Shown here one piece after another: positions 24,066 through 32,274 of a stretch of DNA of 64,000 nt. The first letter of the stretch is position 1. Every line of letters starts with the position of its first letter. The notes beneath the pieces are model-generated. The model was given only the letters and a program-made list of their open reading frames with translations, searched no databases and had not been told where the DNA came from. The translations under genes were made by a program, and so were the position numbers. Origin of the DNA: Nitrosopumilaceae archaeon (GTDB taxonomy: Archaea; Thermoproteota; Nitrososphaeria; Nitrososphaerales; Nitrosopumilaceae); assembly GCA_965214835.1 (NCBI GenBank), contig CBDCCK010000002.1, positions 352,001 through 416,000 on the forward strand, read 5' to 3'.

Positions 24066-24168
24066 AGCCCGATAGTCTAGCGGTCAAATGGTTTCAGGCC
24101 AAGGATCTCGCGCTCTGGATCTCAGGAGAGGATACGCGGGGACGGCAGTTCGAATCTGCCTCGGGCTA
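24066..24168 (+). tRNA. tRNA-Gln(CUG) with two introns (D-loop and canonical 37/38)
   Basis: Acceptor AGCCCGA/TCGGGCT, anticodon arm TCGCG-CTCTGG[intron]A-CGCGG, T arm GGCAG-TTCGAAT-CTGCC, and an extra 15 nt in the D loop. Confidence 0.85.
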
Positions 24169-24179
24169 CTTTGAAAATT

Positions 24180-26126: not shown

Positions 26127-26318
26127 GTAGGAGTTTACCTCCTCCCAAAGACGCGATGCAGGTGGGCACGGTCATGAAAGACCCTGATCAACGGTAACGC
26201 CCAAGGGGTAGACTTGCGCGCTGGTGTAAGATTACCCCCTCCCCCCAAGCGACACTGCCAGCCGAGGCCGTCATGATCACACCTGCCACGTCGTATCTCA
26301 GAAGGGGCAAACTCTTAC
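26127..26318. repeat. Two tandem degenerate GTA-terminal MITE-like elements
   Basis: gtaggagtttacc...ggggtagacttgc and gtaagattacccc...ggggcaaactcttac, with ends similar to 12295-12510. Confidence 0.45.
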
Positions 26319-26991
26319 GACTGCCCGTCCGGTTCTGTGTAAGATTGGTGACCTAGAATGCGGATATTCTCTGAATTGAGATTTTATTTTATGCCTAGAC
26401 AGAATACTTGCTTAGCGAGGCATTCTGGATGATGGTCTTCCACTTGTTGATGCCGTCCACGACAATCAAGGATGCCTCCGCAGGCGTCTTTCCCTCCAGG
26501 CTTCCGTGCTTTTTGGTGTAATTGTAGTAGACCCTCATTCCGTCAAGTATGGCCGTATCCATCTTCTTGAGGCCCCTGAACACCTTCTCGCGGTCTCTGA
26601 TCTCGCCGTTGAGCCTCTCCATCCTGTTGTTGTTGTCCCGGTCTCTTTTTCCTGCCAGGTGGATATGTCTTACGTGATTCGTACCCTTTCCGAATACCCT
26701 CCTTGAGGACTTGGCATATGCCGGCAGGCCGTCCGTGATGAAGTTTCTGGGGCTTTTTCCGGCATGTGATTTTGTCAGTTGTAATAGACTGTCCGCATTG
26801 TGCTGGAACTTGTTGTCTGCCAGGTCGGAGGCCAGCCAGTAGCGCGTATCGTCATCCATCGAGGCGAATAGATAGCACTGCCTGCCGCTGATTTTCACCC
26901 ATACCTCGTCGGCCCGGAACCAGCTGCCGACCCGTGGAACGATTCCGTTGAGGTATGTCGATGTCATCCTGGAATAGTCTCTAACCCAGTT

Positions 26992-28709
26992 AGACCTTAT
27001 GCGTAAACGAAATTAGCGGCGATGCCCCCGGCGCACGGGCTACAAATGAGGCAAGTCAGGGCCGGCGCACGCGCGACTGTACCTTACAACGTTGAAAATA
27101 TTTGATCAAAACCACAACTATTTTCAGACGATTGATTTAGATCCGGGATCCATTCTCGCATAAGAGTAATGGCAAAGTCCGAGACCGAGCAGATACGACT
27201 GCTGAAGAAGAGAATCGAGCAGTACGAGAAGGAGAAGGTACAGGACAGGAAGGAGAAGGCGCGGGACAAAAAGAAGATCAAGAAGTATGAGAAGAGGATC
27301 AAGAGGCACGAGAAGAAGAGCAGGCAGGACAGGAAGGAGAAGGCGCGGGACAGGACGGAGAGGATGCAGTACAGGAAGGAGATCAGAGAGTACGAGAAGA
27401 AGAGCAGGCAGGACGGCAGGAGGCAGGAGCGGGATCAGGAGAGGATAGGGCAGCTGGAACAGCAGCTGGACGCCGAGCGCCGGATGTGGCCCGCAACCTG
27501 GGATGACGACAGGCGCTCCGCGGACAACGCCGCCCTCATGCACAGGCTCGAGGTGCTCGATGACATAATCGGTGGCGGGTCCCTGCAGCCCACCACGTCG
27601 ATGAACCTCCGCCAGTTTGACTACATATATGACCGGTTTACGAAGCTTGCCAAAAAGCACACAGAAGGCCCCCTGTTCTCAGAAGACGAGGACAACTTGC
27701 CCGGAAACCGGTGCAAGCTGTCCTACCGCCACGCCCTGCTGATGTCGCTGATGCGCAAGTACGGAAACCCGACACAGGAGCAGCTTGCGGCATTCTTTGG
27801 CATAGACCAGAGCACCGTATGCAGGTACCTCAGGTATTGCGACATGATATTCACCAAGATACTGCCCACGCCGGACGCCGTATCGCGAAAGATACAAAAC
27901 GCCCGCACGATCAAGGAAGTCAAGAAGATCGTCCCGGATCTGACCGTGATTGTAGACGGCACGCACATCGACATACAGCGCCCCACAGACAAGGAGCCAA
28001 GAAAGGAGGCATACTCTGGCAAGAAGAAGAGCTTTACGCGCAACACCCAGGTGATTGCCGACAAGAAGGGACTGGCGATGTATGCAAGCAAGTCGGCGCC
28101 CGGAAGCACGCACGACCTCACCATGATAAAGAACAACCCACCGGATCTGGGAATCCTGACTGCCAGGATGCGCAGCAACAGAAAGCACCCCGAGGACGAG
28201 AAGGTAAAGATGTTCTCTGATCTGGGATACATGGGAATCGAGGAGGTGTATCCCGGGGCCACATCCGTGCAGCCCGACAAGAAGCCAAGGAAAGGCAAGC
28301 TTACAAAGAAACAGAAAGCGCAGAACAGGAGGATAAGCAGCAAGAGGGTGACAGTAGAGCACGCCATAGGACGGATAAAGCAGTACAAGCGGATGCGTGA
28401 TCCGTACGACGGGACCGCCGAGGAGTTCGACAGGGAGTTCCAGGTGACGGCCGGGCTTGCCAACTTTAGGCTGCTGTGGGACAAGCGGAACAAGAAGCTC
28501 ATGCATGGGTTCTGATACCACGATACGGAGCGCATTGCGGCGCCACACGATGCCGCACTATACTGTAGTTTTTACCAGCTGTAATGGCTCGTAGCTGCAC
28601 TATATACGGACTCTGCCGCCCTCATACACGTCATGTGATGCCGTCAGCCTTGCATGTATGGCCGGCCACCGTCGGAATATTTCGATCCGGTCGATTACGC
28701 ATAAGGTCT
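26992..28709 (+). mobile_element. IS5-family (ISL2/DDE_Tnp_4-like) insertion sequence, 1718 bp
   Basis: TIR agaccttatgcgtaa(a/t)cga (18/19), 3-bp TSD GTT. Confidence 0.92.
27169..28515 (+). CDS. IS5-family transposase (HTH_Tnp_4 + DDE_Tnp_4) with charged coiled-coil N-terminus
   Basis: LAAFFGIDQSTVCR, IVDGTH, YSGKKK, HD, DLGY, RVTVEHAIGRIK. Confidence 0.92.
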   Translation: MAKSETEQIRLLKKRIEQYEKEKVQDRKEKARDKKKIKKYEKRIKRHEKKSRQDRKEKARDRTERMQYRKEIREYEKKSRQDGRRQERDQERIGQLEQQLDAERRMWPATWDDDRRSADNAALMHRLEVLDDIIGGGSLQPTTSMNLRQFDYIYDRFTKLAKKHTEGPLFSEDEDNLPGNRCKLSYRHALLMSLMRKYGNPTQEQLAAFFGIDQSTVCRYLRYCDMIFTKILPTPDAVSRKIQNARTIKEVKKIVPDLTVIVDGTHIDIQRPTDKEPRKEAYSGKKKSFTRNTQVIADKKGLAMYASKSAPGSTHDLTMIKNNPPDLGILTARMRSNRKHPEDEKVKMFSDLGYMGIEEVYPGATSVQPDKKPRKGKLTKKQKAQNRRISSKRVTVEHAIGRIKQYKRMRDPYDGTAEEFDREFQVTAGLANFRLLWDKRNKKLMHGF

Positions 28710-29278
28710 GTTGTATACCGTCTTGTGGCTTACACTGATTCCAAGCATCTCGTAATGGTTGGAGATGTCACGGACGCTCATCCCCGTATAATACATCTGC
28801 AACGCGCCCGTTATGATGGATTCGTCAAACCTCCTGTTTTCGAATCCAAAGTTTGCAGTAAACCTTCTCTTACAGTCTTTACACTTGAACATCTGCATTG
28901 TAGAGCTTTTGTTCTTCTTTAATCCCTTCCTGACGATGTTGCCAGAATCGCAGAACTTGCACAGGTTCAGCCTTGACCTTTCAATGATTCTAAACCCGTC
29001 GTGTCCGAACACGTTTCTTCTGACATACTCCAGTATTACCTTGATGTGCTTGCAGTCCGATTTTCTGCTCCGGTGGTCCGGACACTCACAGACAAGCCCG
29101 CTGCCCGTCCTAGATACGGTATAGAACTTGGATGGATCTGACTGGGATCTGACCCTGAAATCATTCGTACCAATGATCTGGGTGGCGTGACCCGGAGTCT
29201 CCATGATCTGTTTTGCACGTCGGTCTCTTGCGTTCATTCACATCCCTCCTCGAAAATTAATATAGAACAAAAAAGAAG

Positions 29279-29363
29279 CGGTGAGTGTGGGATTCGAACC
29301 CACGAAGGCTTTCCACCTTGCAGGTCATAAGCCTGCCACTCTAACCAACTAAGTGAACTCACC
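29279..29363 (-). tRNA. Non-canonical class-II-type tRNA: anticodon UAU (Ile) with long variable arm and G73
   Basis: GGTGAGT TC ACTT AGTTGGTTA GAGT G GCAGG CTTATGA CCTGC AAGGT-GGAAA-GCCTT C GTGGG TTCGAAT CCCAC ACTCACC G. All stems pair, with an upstream TAAATA box and a downstream T-tract. Confidence 0.88.
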
Positions 29364-29450
29364 ATGTATTAGATTAACAGTATGGTTATTTATTAGTTGT
29401 GGTTAACAGATCGGTTAAGATTTATATTAGCAACGTTGCTTCAAAACAAC

Positions 29451-29636
29451 ATGACACGCTACAAAAAGGACGCAAGGGAGTTTGATGTGAGCCTCACCAA
29501 AAGCAGGAACAGGGACGGATCTGAAAGCCTGATCTGCCGCGTACCGAGAATCATAGTAGAAACACTGGGCGAGCCAAACAGCCTGAAATTCCTTATCAAG
29601 AGCAAGAACATAGTTGTGACCGCAGGTGAGAAGTGA
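29451..29636 (+). CDS. Small AbrB/MazE-like DNA-binding protein (putative regulator)
   Basis: MTRYKKDAREFDVSL...CRVPRIIVETLGEPNSLKF...IVV swapped-hairpin-like pattern. TTTATA box near 29420. Confidence 0.55.
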   Translation: MTRYKKDAREFDVSLTKSRNRDGSESLICRVPRIIVETLGEPNSLKFLIKSKNIVVTAGEK

Positions 29637-29742
29637 TGTTACCGTACCATAAGGAAGCCAACAGTAGAGATTTTGGGCAATCCAAACCAACTCGTGTTCA
29701 AACTTGTAAAAAAGAAGGCAATCATAAAAGGTGTAATCTGAA

Positions 29743-30532
29743 ATGAAAAAGTCCCTCCAACGGATATACAATACCGACTGTATGGATTTTATGAGTAGTT
29801 ATTCCGGTAAAAAATTCGATGTTATCGTCACATCCCCACCATACAACGTAAACAAGAAATACAACATCTATTTGGATAACCTGACCCTAGTAGACTACCT
29901 AAAGTGGGTGGAGTTGTGGGGGGGGGCTCTATGACCTACTTTCAGACAACGGATCATTTTTCCTAAACATAGGCTACACTGCTAAAAACCCGAACATACC
30001 GTTTGATGTCCAGCGCGTGCTGTCAAAGTACTTCAAGACGCAGAACATATTCCACTGGATAAAGTCAATATCAATACCTGAGTCAAACATATCCGTCGGA
30101 CATTTCAAGCCCATTAATACGCCACGTTTCGTAAACCAGTGCCATGAATTTGTGTTTCATTTCACCAAAAATGGTAACGTGCCTCTTGACAAACTGTCGA
30201 TAGGAGTTTCGTATGCAGATAAAAGTAACATAACGCGCTGGAACCACGGAAACACAAAACGTGACAGGGGAAACACGTGGTTCATACCATATGAGACAAA
30301 AAATGGGAATATGAGACATCCTTGTGAGTTTCCGGTCAAGCTCCCTGAAATGTGCATCATGCTACATGGCGTAAAAAACGACCTTTTTGTCTATGATCCG
30401 TTTATGGGAATCGGCTCCACGGCCATTGCGTGTAAAAGACTTGGTGTAAGGTGTGTCGGCACCGAGATAGATCCAGAGTATGTGGATGTTGCAAACCAAA
30501 GACTTGAAAACGAGGTGTTGATTTGTCAGTAG
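29743..30532 (+). CDS. Beta-class N4-C/N6-A DNA methyltransferase, frameshifted at a G9 tract (29918-29926)
   Basis: [10 protein letters not shown] in the first frame. [19 protein letters not shown] and DPFMGIGST in the +1 frame. Removing one G fuses them. Confidence 0.88.
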
Positions 30533-31074
30533 AGTTTCATAGTCTCATAAAGGACACATGCGATAAAACGGTACTGCAAACGCAAAAGAGCCATCCAATA
30601 CTGAAGATACTATCAAATGGTCTTAACATAATTCTACGAAAATCAAAATACACAAGGTATGAAGACAGGCGTATAAACGATTTAGGCAAGTCGTTGGAAC
30701 AGGAGATAAAGGACATAATAACACACGATAATGACATCAAGCTTATTCCATACAGTCAACACCTGGGTTATCCTGATCTACGTGTCCAAATACATGGTAA
30801 AGTCGTGTTTATTGAGATAAAGACAACGTCAAAAGAAGAAAATTTTGATTCAACTCAACGTGTGTTTTATTACACAAATGGCAACAAGATAAGCGACGAC
30901 GGATACCACCTACTCATACAGCTGTTCTTGGAAGCATCACCATCAAATCCAAATTCCTACATTTTCAAGAAGTGGAGGATAAGGGACCTGTATTCTCTAA
31001 GTGTAAGCCTAAAGCGAGAATACAATGCGAGCTATAGAGATTTAAACAACTTACCCGTATTGTGTGGTTCCTAG
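30523..31074 (+). CDS. Putative type II restriction endonuclease (PD-(D/E)XK)
   Basis: GYPDL...FIEIKT catalytic pattern, overlaps MTase end, AT-rich. Confidence 0.7.
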
Positions 31075-31075
31075 A

Positions 31076-31267
31076 ATGGAATGTAACAACCGCTGTGAAA
31101 AATTCAGAAAAGCTAGGAGATACAACACACAGGATTCCAAATACTGTGTTAATTGTGACATCTTTCTAGAAACCAAAAACAACCGCTGTCCTTGTTGCAA
31201 CAATCAATTGCGAACCGGGCCGGCAAACTCAAAAAACAGAAAAAACCACCGTAAAAAATCCGAATAA
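31076..31267 (+). CDS. Small Cys-rich zinc-finger protein
   Basis: MECNNRC...YCVNCDIF...RCPCCNNQLR. Confidence 0.6.
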   Translation: MECNNRCEKFRKARRYNTQDSKYCVNCDIFLETKNNRCPCCNNQLRTGPANSKNRKNHRKKSE

Positions 31268-31547
31268 ATGGCGCTGTCCAGCCACAAAAATTCATCTCAA
31301 AGATCTACACCCTAGGTGCCTAAAACTACACAAAACAGCCCGAAAGGTCAGATTGCCCAGGTATTCCTGATCCAAGCAAAATTCCATATCACCAAGATTG
31401 CACAGAACCGCCCGTCCTATACTTTTAATATGAGATATGAGAATACTAAGCAGGTGGGTAAAGTCTGTTGAGCAATCAATAGGATCTTGACCGAAACAAT
31501 GACGTCTGTTCGGACAGATAGGAAGGAGTAGGTCAAGAGTCACCATT

Positions 31548-32148
31548 AGACTTTATGATTAAAAATTCCGCAAGGTTTTCCAAGCGCAGTCGTGCTGATC
31601 AGACCAAGCTGCTGCATGCAGATGTGTCATGACGCATGCAAAAATCTGCTCATGTCAAAAAGACGTGCGCAGCCCTGCAGCACGGCCATGTGCCTTGCTG
31701 ACGAATCAGAAAAAAGGCGGCCCGTGCCGCCGTACGTTATATGTCAAGCAGGTGACCGTGGCGCCTTTTCTTTTTCAGTATCGTCTTGAGGTTCTCAAGA
31801 CCTGTAATTACCTGTATGAAATAGTTGAGATCCCTAGCGGTTCCGCCAAACGGCATGGTCAGGATGTCATATTTTTTGAGCCGCCCGATGTGGTGCACCA
31901 CCCTGACGCGCACCCTGCTTATCTGCTTACGGCGCCTCTTTTGCGTCGCGGCAAGCTCCCCGTCTCTGGGCTTCTTAGGAGGATGCCTGTTTGTGGCGTC
32001 CGGAGGCATCCTTTGAATGTCCTCAAAGCCCAAGCCGCTATAAACCACAAACGCCTTTCCCGGATCGTCTGCGTTTCCTGCGTTTTTCATTGATCTGGTG
32101 TGCCTCCCAAAAAATTTGCCAATCGAGTCTCTGATGCATTCACAGTGA
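31548..32148 (-). pseudogene. Degenerate IS5-family transposase remnant
   Basis: GLGFEDI..PPKKPRDGEL..QKRRRKQISRVRVRVVHHIGRLKKY mirrors the C-terminus of the 27169 transposase. TIR-like agactttatg at 31548. Confidence 0.75.
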
Positions 32149-32274
32149 GGTTGTTTCCTAATTCCACTTGCCTGATTCAATCTGTATGTTTTTCTGAATT
32201 TTCGCCCTTTTGCACGCCTGATCCATATGGCATCTCAACGGTTTTCAGGAATTCTGACGAATTAGGAAACAAGC
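32149..32274. mobile_element. 126-bp MITE (GGTTGTTTCCTAATT TIR), copy 1
   Basis: Terminal inverted repeats, with a highly similar copy at 45625-45750. Confidence 0.8.

Follow-up and report, generated by a model that had tools for sequence, protein, structure and literature searches.

A single-transposase IS6-family element carrying restriction-modification genes and a serine-type class II tRNA gene in a Nitrosopumilaceae archaeon

Boundaries and gene content of the element

We analysed a 64,000-nucleotide window (contig C2, positions 352001-416000) of the genome of a Nitrosopumilaceae archaeon (here G000; 3.22 Mb, GC 0.526) and identified in it an insertion sequence (IS) of the IS6 family that holds further genes between its ends. 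The element occupies positions 26331-31409 of the window, a span of 5079 bp, or 3358 bp after subtraction of an IS nested within it and one copy of a GTT duplication. A transposase, a tRNA with anticodon UAU, an AbrB-like open reading frame (ORF), a DNA methyltransferase, a nuclease and a Cys-rich ORF, all of them listed in a preliminary description of this DNA, are present. Positions without a prefix refer to the window, those with the prefix C2 to the genome contig, and those with L-numbers to loci extracted from genomes. The genomes of relatives are designated G001, G002, G004 and G022, and G002 is that of the closest relative.

The element is bounded by terminal inverted repeats (TIRs). 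The TIR at the end that adjoins the C-terminus of the transposase (IRR, GGTTCTGTGTAAGATTGGTGA, 26331-26351, + strand) was found by direct reading and a pattern search. The opposite TIR (GGTTCTGTGCAATCTTGGTGA, 31389-31409) terminates a 110-bp segment of the IRL type (31300-31409, - strand) that was recognized by sequence comparison. The first TIR and the reverse complement of the second are identical at 18 of 21 positions, and GGTTCTGTG... tips are present at both ends. Directly outside, at 26323-26330 and 31410-31417, direct reading shows two copies of GCCCGTCC, an 8-bp target-site duplication (TSD) of the length known for IS6. A degenerate TIR pattern has two matches in the window, which are the two element ends, and none in 100 shuffles. 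Pairing of TIR cores across the genome (368 forward by 372 reverse) yielded only four pairs with matching TIRs and a TSD with at most one mismatch, the window element included. The TIRs, the exact duplication and the sizes of 5079 bp and about 3.36 kb given in the preliminary description were thus confirmed by direct reading and by the shuffles.

Both flanks of the element are themselves repeats. The paralogous repeats hold a single GCCCATGC(T) at the position of the left duplication, and for the right flank (31418-31547) there are three paralogues of nearly full length, about 90% identical to it. When 26331-31417 is excised in silico, three G000 paralogues align across the junction (...GACTGCCC[G/A]T-CC/GCTTATACTTTTAATAT...), and one copy of the target repeat in G002 is likewise continuous. 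Because these paralogous target repeats read through the junction, the whole unit was inserted as one piece, and we consider 26331-31409 to be very probably a cargo-carrying IS6 unit that arrived in this way. Contigs were available from runs X3 and X4 of one study and X7 of another; X1 possibly represents the source sample. A 2181-nt contig in X3 and X4 equals window 29317-31497 with no differences, and a contig of these runs spans the left junction; the insertion is therefore present in independent samples. No contig in the four runs joins 26330 to 31418, which is not evidence either way. The GC content of the cargo is 0.37-0.44, compared with 0.50-0.60 in the flanks, as expected from the earlier remark that the cargo is AT-rich.

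The transposase gene is split. Its C-terminal catalytic fragment (26395-26967, - strand, 190 aa) matches the DDE domain PF13610 (DDE_Tnp_IS240) at 56.4 bits, for a cutoff of 27 (other scores, 53.6 and 54.2), and the model NF033587. The N-terminal fragment (28713-29237, - strand) has a Cys/His-rich, zinc-binding region with two Cys/His clusters and a helix-turn-helix, and is recognized by weak profile matches (an IS1/IS1595 zinc domain at 26.3 bits, below the cutoff of 28, and positions 1-46 of the IS6 profile). We take the CxC...CxH cluster to resemble a SWIM finger, for which there is no profile match. Between the fragments lies an IS5-family element of 1718 bp (26992-28709, + strand; recognized by its inverted repeat, Pfam and NCBIfam). 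It has 19-nt TIRs that are 95% complementary and a 3-bp duplication, GTT, at 26989-26991 and 28710-28712. Its own transposase (27169-28515, + strand, 448 aa) has DDE_Tnp_4 and HTH_Tnp_4 domains and IS5 as the best NCBIfam model, and at least eight further full-length copies of the element occur in G000 at 100% identity. Removal of this IS and one GTT, by coordinates, makes the frame of the N-terminal fragment continuous with 26395-26991 and restores a transposase of 373 aa. Contigs from X3, X4 and X7 carry the exact joint that skips 1721 bp. The N-terminus of the IS5-family transposase contains five copies of a 21-nt period (27206-27436, + strand) that encode a Lys/Arg/Glu-rich, heptad-like segment.

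Assignment to IS6 is consistent across several lines of evidence. For an intact paralogue of the transposase (L017:2641-3765, 375 aa, 80% identical), NF033587 outscores every other NCBIfam model by more than 60 bits. A 67%-identical homologue from Nitrosopumilus ureiphilus is named 'IS6 family transposase' by NCBI, and 2976 proteins are homologous at E <=1e-10. The element's tips fit the IS6 terminal motif GG...cTGTt (given in the IS6 review PMC7986276). The NF033587 score of the paralogue, 115.6 bits, is below the curated cutoff of 125, which counts against a typical member and marks the transposase as a divergent one. Rather than a compact single-gene IS of 0.7-0.9 kb, this is a unit of 3358 bp with five further genes. 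That it is a divergent IS6-family transporter IS (tIS) is well supported.

The cargo includes a type II restriction-modification (RM) pair of adjacent genes. The N6_N4 DNA methyltransferase (29743-30532, + strand; SPPY motif; PF01555; PADLOC MTase_II, 1e-63) is frameshifted: one frame covers PF01555 positions 2-36 and the other covers 39-220, with the switch at a run of nine G at 29918-29926. The run is unchanged (no indel) in the X3 and X4 contigs, and X1 contigs break there. Given the same run length in the X3 and X4 contigs, the frameshift is real in at least two studies. Frameshifts at G runs are a feature of phase-variable RM genes, and variation in the length of this run is possible. The restriction endonuclease (30523-31074, + strand, 183 aa; PD...EIK motif; PADLOC REase_II, 7.2e-11) has five homologues at 68-78% identity. 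A PDB search with its sequence returned nothing. The best Foldseek match of its AlphaFold2 model (pLDDT 69) is EcoRV (1az0_A, E=5e-4), followed by SwaI and HincII, so the predicted fold is EcoRV-like. A Cys-rich ORF of 63-67 aa from the ORF list (31064-31267, + strand) overlaps the stop codon of the nuclease gene. It has no family match in Pfam, NCBIfam or PADLOC and probably encodes a zinc ribbon. With its transposase split and its methyltransferase frameshifted, the window copy is defective and no longer autonomous.

A putative AbrB/SpoVT-like protein of 61 aa is encoded at 29451-29636 (+ strand), with the conserved ATG at 29451, not 29397, as its start. By tblastn, homologues were found in 12 related loci and two other G000 copies, directly upstream of the transposase gene and in divergent orientation. 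They share the motif M-[TP]-[RK]-W-K-K-D-x-T-E-F ... C-R-I-P-K-P-I-x-E-x-L-G, of which our alignment A3 displays R-[IV]-P-K-P-I-x-E-x-L-G. The predicted order of elements (strand-strand-strand-helix-strand-strand) fits AbrB, and the nearest Atlas cluster is AbrB/MazE/SpoVT (score 0.88). Two results tell against the assignment: the ORF has no match in Pfam, where AbrB is PF04014, and all Foldseek matches have E >=1, with AbrB, MazE and VapB among these weak ones. A PDB sequence profile search gave nothing relevant. We refer to the ORF as AbrB-like on the strength of the motif and the Atlas lead. Behind its TGA stop, an in-frame partial duplicate of the C-terminal half extends from 29637 to 29742 (+ strand; CRVPRIIVETLGEPNSLKFLI compared with IRKPTVEILGNPNQLVFKLV).

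The element sits in a patch of mobile-element debris. To its left, 26241-26319 belongs to a GC-rich 80-nt repeat family with at least 43 further matches in G000. Two tandem units lie between the gene for L30e and the element, and a related unit at about 26127-26316 aligns to C2:267839-268023. To the right, 31452-31545 (+ strand) matches the Rfam DUF3800-X RNA motif (RF02984, 52.2 bits; gathering score 38.2). Its paralogues at C2:2767001-2767130, 1928597-1928725 and 1974249-1974377 form a small repeat family, and the insertion point is 43 nt upstream of the motif. Beyond it are a member of a 185-nt repeat family of about 20 copies (31556-31740, - strand) and the C-terminal fragment of another DDE_Tnp_4 transposase (31737-32180, - strand). 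Elsewhere in the window, an ARAGORN intron search of the genome identified a tRNA-Ala(CGC) gene with an 8-nt intron (24066-24169, + strand) that is not in the default window scan.

Related elements and mode of movement

With the intact paralogue as query, we collected 67 related loci from species-representative genomes, nearly all of them metagenome-assembled genomes of Nitrosopumilaceae and one of Methanoperedens. A scripted search for a TIR pair with identical 8-bp flanks around the transposase match showed 21 of the 67 to have TIRs around a single transposase and an exact TSD of 8 bp. These elements measure 1098-7034 bp (20 are at least 1855 bp), and the TIRs of most match at 22-24 of 24 positions. 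The remaining 46 loci include truncated contigs, partial transposases and TIR pairs without a TSD. In G000, a 2129-bp copy has TIRs identical at 21 of 21 positions and the TSD AAATTCCA, and a 4030-bp copy has near-identical TIRs, no TSD and an Mrr_cat gene. A 12.1-kb stretch of the same genome (C2:2069498-2081604; L103:499-12605) has TIR-like ends that agree at 19 of 21 positions and an exact TSD, GATGTGGA. It lacks an intact IS6 transposase and contains a periplasmic-binding-protein gene, a DsbA/thioredoxin gene and transposases of the IS3, IS66 and IS4/5 types.

We searched 45 ORFs from 19 elements against Pfam (14 elements to which a first script assigned a TSD, in one case with 1 mismatch, and five TIR pairs without an exact TSD). 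Genes for a DNA methyltransferase, a restriction-type nuclease or both are present in 14 of the 19. The domains include N6_N4 methyltransferases, HNH, CfrBI, an EcoRI methylase with GmrSD-HNH, GmrSD, Eco57I/type IIG, and N6_Mtase with an S domain, as well as an MmeI system split by an IS5-like insertion. The other five elements carry a NurA gene, a beta-propeller gene, DUF4760 or unknowns. The split MmeI-type gene belongs to a sister element of 7034 bp (L047:1703-5921), and the DDE_Tnp_4 insertion in it parallels the nested IS of the window.

One of the related loci, L022, comes from another genome. It shares with the window element, at 99% identity, a stretch that starts at IRR, includes the transposase and the tRNA, and ends 30 nt upstream of the latter. 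Beyond this point it has a different RM pair (methyltransferase and HNH) and another TSD. The same stretch is present in L021 at 82% identity, and L023 shares the transposase alone, at 96%. Since AbrB-like homologues stand beside transposases in the 12 related loci and two G000 copies, the core of the clade is a transposase of about 373 aa with an N-terminal zinc-binding extension together with a divergent gene for an AbrB-like protein of 58-62 aa. Variable cargo, mostly RM genes, lies between IRL and the AbrB-like gene. By these comparisons the tRNA and the AbrB-like gene are backbone, and the RM pair and Cys-rich ORF variable cargo. The earlier suggestion of a 'defence-plus-translation' cargo stands for the RM pair only: the tRNA, shared with L022, is backbone, and conservation of the AbrB-like gene in the 14 places named is at odds with its listing as cargo.

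The two ends of the window element have different affinities. Its IRR matches the first 21-24 nt of the L022 and L023 TIRs, which are themselves identical at 24 of 24 positions. At three other places in G000 there are IS6 end segments that share 74-82% identity with the 110-bp IRL segment. The last 29 nt of this segment recur at 100% identity at C2:254530, away from any transposase match, and over its first 46 nt it has 83% identity with the L021 IRL; it resembles the L021/c656 type. As judged from these resemblances, IRL and IRR are of different lineages and the unit is a mosaic. At the IRL ends of L022 (3855-3960) and L023 (839-945), TIR-like sequences occur as tandem pairs on one strand; the two members are spaced by 70-91 bp and belong to different lineages. 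Further such pairs, away from any transposase match, are at C2:1508061/1508152, 816618/816709, 640610/640701 and 635952/636043.

These observations suggest how the element may operate. One DDE transposase would act on one pair of TIRs, move the contents together and generate the 8-bp TSD. Movement would take place by replicative cointegrate formation of the IS6 type, followed by host recombination. Cargo might be captured when the transposase pairs IRR with a heterologous, more distant IRL, a step that we infer from the different lineages of the two TIRs.

Several points weigh against this reading. The TIRs differ at three of 21 positions, and a mosaic unit with ends of two lineages may have moved only once. 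The cargo of the window was not found in the 67 related loci. We found no demonstration of cointegrate chemistry for an archaeal IS6 in the literature consulted. No orthologous empty site was found in G002, where the locus is rearranged and split over contigs. The paralogous repeats are for this reason empty-site analogues rather than an orthologous empty allele. The comparison with relatives that the preliminary description called for has thus produced continuous paralogous copies (three in G000, one in G002) but not the empty allele itself. It had also proposed a search of the assembly and of public genomes for the TIRs and transposase. The shared anatomy of 21 of the 67 loci, the RM-type genes in 14 of 19 elements, the TIRs and TSD and the empty-site analogues all agree with its claim of a single-transposase IS6 unit with passengers.

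A decayed two-copy (pseudo-compound) transposon is an unlikely alternative origin. According to this explanation, a second IS6 at the right end has eroded to 110 bp and the cargo moved in the manner of IS26. The presence there of 110 bp of IS6 end sequence from another lineage would fit, as would the two tandem TIR-like sequences at the IRL ends of L022 and L023 and the many TIR-like sites of G000 away from transposase matches, and deletion derivatives (e.g., a 733-bp element). However, the 110 bp correspond to an inverted IRL-side segment and not to the direct-repeat copy expected of an IS26-type compound, no trace of a second transposase exists between 29237 and 31409, and the 21 related elements have the one-transposase layout, mostly with TIRs matching at 22-24 of 24 positions. 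It is hardly credible that resident host DNA never moved and is merely bracketed by a pair of unrelated insertions, with an IS6 to its left and either a solo IS6 end or a miniature inverted-repeat element to its right: dozens of TIR-like sites in G000, many without a nearby transposase match, and the repeat flanks would permit it, but identical 8-bp repeats lie exactly outside both TIRs, the paralogous target repeats are continuous once 26331-31417 is removed, the cargo is poorer in GC than the genome, and the layout with exact TSDs recurs in 21 of 67 loci.

The class II tRNA gene and its control region

The tRNA gene (29278-29363, - strand) was identified by ARAGORN and by the Rfam tRNA model (59.6 bits). 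It is on the same strand as the transposase gene, 40 nt upstream of its ATG. The acceptor stem has 7 bp, the D arm contains GG, the anticodon stem is GCAGG/CCUGC with the loop CUUAUGA (U33, UAU, G37), a variable region of 16 nt forms a helix, the T arm is GUGGG-UUCGAAU-CCCAC and the discriminator is G; there is no structural defect. Across 12 such tRNA sequences the cloverleaf and variable-arm helix are kept in 96.7% of 300 cells, with compensatory change at 19 of 25 pairs. None of 500 shuffles, and no slid register, comes near this. The invariant columns are G73 and those that we read as the universal tRNA positions U8, A14, G19, A21, U33, GTTC, A58 and C61. In G000, a covariance model (R1) scores tRNA-Ser at 66-86 bits, tRNA-Leu at 46-62 and class I tRNAs at no more than 60; the window tRNA scores 93.2. 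We considered whether the variable arm might be an intron and rejected this: covariation shows it to be a helix (helix 4), and the arm is also found in genuine Ser tRNAs.

To our knowledge, class II tRNAs in archaea are those for Leu and Ser alone. The window tRNA has the variable arm, G73 and G30:C40 (the last in 9 of the 12 sequences). These three features are serine determinants; G73, followed by G30-C40, is a strong element for both bacterial-type and archaeal seryl-tRNA synthetases, and G73 is an antideterminant for leucyl-tRNA synthetase in Haloferax volcanii (all from the sections of PMC9976931 used here). Because all three marks are present, serylation is predicted, and the window tRNA is most likely charged with serine. 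Its anticodon is UAU, not one of those for serine (NGA or GCU). Nor does it have the form of a tRNA-Ile(UAU), for which a class I body with A73 and A37 is expected: it has the 16-nt variable arm, G73 and G37, and the host tRNA-Ile(GAU) is class I. The UAU anticodon was correctly reported in the preliminary description, then, but on a body of serine type rather than that of an ordinary tRNA-Ile. The statement that the tRNA is internal and not an att site also proved right. The gene is complete, with a promoter and T-run of its own; one element end is 1.2 kb away (nested IS removed) and the other 2.0 kb; there is no integrase, and no partial tRNA copy is found at either end.

The tRNA and the AbrB-like gene diverge from a control region (29364-29450). 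Direct reading shows in it a TATA box that lies between the direct repeats CTGTTAAC and CTGTTAAT and precedes the 5' end of the tRNA by about 30 nt. This repeat-TATA-repeat layout is found in six tRNA-bearing and six tRNA-less elements, and the sequence of the repeat is lineage-specific. In the tRNA-less elements (L032, L042, L043, L044, L050 and L052), a repeat, a TATA-like box and the same repeat are followed by ATAATA(T/C)... and the transposase ATG (GTG in L052), so the transposase mRNA of these elements is likely leaderless. In the tRNA-bearing elements the layout terminates in ...CAT|G, where G is nucleotide 1 of the tRNA: this 5' G stands exactly where the former leaderless ATG had its G. 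Behind the tRNA, a combined trailer and transposase leader (29238-29277, - strand, direct reading) comprises a T6 run, a TATATTAA box, GGAGG and the ATG. It is kept in L021, L022, L024 and L028 and in the remnant at C2:702407. The class II tRNA gene occupies the presumed regulated promoter at the place where the probably leaderless transposase of tRNA-less relatives begins, and the transposase lies behind the T-run, a second TATA box and GGAGG. The AbrB-like protein may regulate this shared region, and the promoter that drives the tRNA is presumably the one under its control. Such an arrangement suggests that transcription or processing of the tRNA may be coupled to expression of the transposase.

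Similar tRNA genes stand beside some of the other transposases. In 9 of the 67 related loci, ARAGORN and R1 place such a gene no more than about 130 nt from the transposase ORF. Taken together, the sister tRNAs of these loci, of G000 and of its relatives represent the anticodons UAU, GAA, CAG, GAG, UAA, AUC, ACG and UUC. In L021 and L022 (UAU) and in L024 and L028 (CAG) they lie about 40-50 nt upstream on the same strand. Those of L030 (UAA) and L065 (AUC; exact TSD) are inside the TIRs on the strand opposite to the transposase, between its stop codon and IRR, and those of L058 (ACG) and L068 (UUC) are just behind partial transposase matches. The L025 tRNA (A73, UAA) looks like an ordinary tRNA-Leu carried as cargo. 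In G000 a GAA tRNA is 51 nt upstream of a transposase paralogue at C2:2806277. A second G000 tRNA, at C2:702318, shows two defects, an anticodon loop of 6 nt and a mismatch in the acceptor stem; the transposase leader is kept there, and an IS66-family insertion follows. The L051 tRNA has a T-stem mismatch. High-scoring matches in relatives include a GAG tRNA next to a G001 transposase and a UAU tRNA in G002, and both GAA and UAU occur in G004. Four dissimilar bodies have the loop CUUAUGA in common (that of the window, L021 and L022, and those of L051, L095 and L098). Across 25 relatives the number of serine-like matches at E <=1e-13 is mostly 2-4, with six in G000 and G004 and five in G001, G002 and G022.

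Other observations in G000 concern similar sequences away from the element. A second family of class II tRNA-like sequences (GTTGGCG...CGCCAACG, G73) is found at C2:182875-182969, 1090321-1090417, 1824008-1824096, 1826707-1826802 and 2887467-2887563, with GAU, GAA, GAU, GAU and CAG, in that order, in the anticodon loops. Singletons occur at C2:914323-914410 (CAG) and 148333-148419 (CCU). None of these adjoins an IS6 transposase, and the R1 scores are low, at about 33 bits, for the two family members listed. At C2:680600-680640, 657881-657920 and 702407-702460 (L017 and L016, the latter with an IS66-family ORF), an IS end abuts the IS6 transposase start codon or leader, which suggests an insertion hot spot just upstream of the transposase ATG.

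What might a tRNA of this kind do? Our leading guess, held tentatively, is that it is a serine-charged mis-decoder. It would be expressed, most likely serylated, and would read AUA as Ser at some low level. The codons themselves speak against a coding role for this activity. When S7, S12, NusA and L30e of G000 are aligned with those of eight relatives, ATA faces I 45 times, V 17 times, L seven times and other residues three times (n=72). In 16 aligned transposases, the codons that match an element's own tRNA stand at conserved Ile/Leu columns. In the same host alignments TTT/TTC faces F and CTG faces L. Since ATA, TTY and CTG align as I, F and L, we reject a change of the host code, which is the standard one. 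A 'private code', in which element genes would need Ser at the codons read by the tRNA, is rejected on account of the conserved Ile/Leu columns. The transposases displayed no pattern of avoidance or enrichment of matching codons. Given Ile at host ATA and the codons at Ile/Leu columns, insertion of serine would be an error and not a code.

The next candidate, which we rate below mis-decoding as a possible but less probable explanation, is that the tRNA is mainly a cis-acting module. Its transcription from the regulated promoter, processing by RNase P and RNase Z, and the T-run would set the level and 5' end of the transposase mRNA. Decoding would be irrelevant and the anticodon free to drift. 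Consistent with this, the 5' G of the tRNA stands, behind the repeat-TATA-repeat promoter, where the leaderless ATG formerly had its G, the gene precedes the transposase by 40 nt on the same strand with T6, TATATTAA and GGAGG in between, and anticodons do vary between lineages. However, processing alone has no need of the anticodon stem, 7-nt loop and U33, which are kept with covariation. The L030 and L065 tRNAs, moreover, lie behind the transposase on the opposite strand, and recurrence of one loop, CUUAUGA, in four dissimilar bodies also tells against this candidate.

A genuine extra AUA decoder is rather improbable. Such a tRNA would be charged with Ile and would aid translation of the AT-rich cargo without the agmatidine-modified tRNA-Ile2. 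UAU is indeed kept in several lineages, ATA is used at 45.8 per 1000 codons in the cargo compared with 21.8 in long host ORFs, and the ATA codons of the transposases are at conserved Ile positions. Against this stand the serine marks on the body (variable arm, G73, G30:C40) and the sister tRNAs, which have GAA, AUC, ACG and UUC on the same type of body. The window tRNA also has G37, and tRNAs for codons that start with A usually have A37. Three CAU tRNAs are already present in the host, and we take one of them to be a tRNA-Ile2 candidate.

Less probable still is a decaying, functionless pseudogene of a host tRNA-Ser picked up by the IS: the defects of the C2:702318 copy (6-nt loop, acceptor mismatch) and of L051 (T-stem mismatch) point that way, but 12 copies retain 96.7% paired cells and compensatory change at 19 of 25 pairs, the promoter and T-run are conserved, and the window copy is without defect.

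Comparison with known systems and implications

The element resembles IS6 members such as IS26, IS257 and IS240 in its PF13610/NF033587 DDE transposase, its GG tips and CTGT core, its 8-bp TSD and its single transposase gene. It differs from them in size (3.4 kb for the window unit and 1.9-7.0 kb for sister elements, compared with about 0.8 kb). It also differs in the conserved second gene, the tRNA and the passenger genes, and in the Cys/His-rich N-terminal extension of about 130 aa on the transposase. In the sections covered of the IS6 review, N-terminal Zn-finger extensions are placed in Clostridial clades h and i, a single IS6 tIS is listed (ISDsp3, with one hypothetical passenger gene), and no thaumarchaeal member appears (PMC7986276). 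A study of the thaumarchaeal mobilome presents IS-like transposons as one- or two-gene elements (PMC6563490). Our keyword searches of the literature found no description of IS6 elements with RM cargo, and the clade in Nitrosopumilaceae is apparently undescribed, although the thaumarchaeal IS listed in the supplementary tables of PMC6563490 may bear on this.

According to the ISfinder definition, tIS of other families carry passenger genes inside the IS's own inverted repeats. The window element is similar in that its passengers lie inside its own repeats and would be moved by a single transposase; the TSD is outside both TIRs, and empty-site analogues exist. What sets it apart is cargo that is mostly RM and is swapped between near-identical backbones (window and L022, 99%). 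IS26-type pseudo-compound transposons and translocatable units also mobilize their neighbours by IS6-type ends with 8-bp TSDs. However, they need two IS in direct repeat, or an IS and a target IS, whereas the window has inverted ends and one transposase, with 110 bp of IRL-side sequence on the right in place of a second flanking copy. Mobile RM systems share the type II methyltransferase and nuclease pair on a mobile element. Here the vehicle is a single IS6 element, and assemblies from two independent studies show the methyltransferase gene out of frame.

For the tRNA, the nearest published parallel that we found is the nev-tRNAs of nematodes, which are class II, have Gly or Ile(UAU) anticodons and are charged with leucine (as described in the parts consulted of PMC3333845 and PMC4300185). 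Both groups combine a class II body with anticodons of neither Leu nor Ser, including UAU, against a standard code, and both have a mismatch between charge and anticodon (predicted in our case). The nev-tRNAs are eukaryotic, chromosomal and Leu-charged, whereas the tRNAs described here are archaeal, bear serine marks (G73) and are built into a transposon beside its transposase. In yeast, many anticodon variants of tRNA-Ser are lethal on accumulation (reported in the portion of PMC6125640 used). Keyword searches of the literature returned no IS-borne class II tRNAs with mismatched anticodons.

It is conceivable, and in our view doubtful, that the transposon is a mobile, switchable mistranslation module (Ile, Phe or Leu to Ser), or that it couples transposase expression to tRNA processing. 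On this reading, to which we give no more credence, domesticated serine-identity tRNAs for AUA, UUY, CUG/CUC, UUA, GAU, GAA and CGU would be placed under a promoter controlled by the AbrB-like protein.

The IS6 family is the textbook case of genes moved only as two-copy compounds, and single-transposase elements with passengers in so many relatives are unusual for it. A whole clade in globally abundant ammonia-oxidizing archaea appears to move RM systems inside single IS6 elements, and swapping of RM cargo between near-identical backbones would be a simple route for the spread of defence genes in Nitrosopumilaceae. The tRNA is the most novel part of the element. Class II tRNAs with serine marks and non-serine anticodons represent a natural, repeated and structurally conserved mismatch between identity and anticodon on a mobile element. 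If either the mistranslation or the coupling reading is true, this would be the first transposon-borne family of identity-mismatched tRNAs; a mistranslation module might constitute a toxin-like or anti-viral device that rides with the RM cargo.

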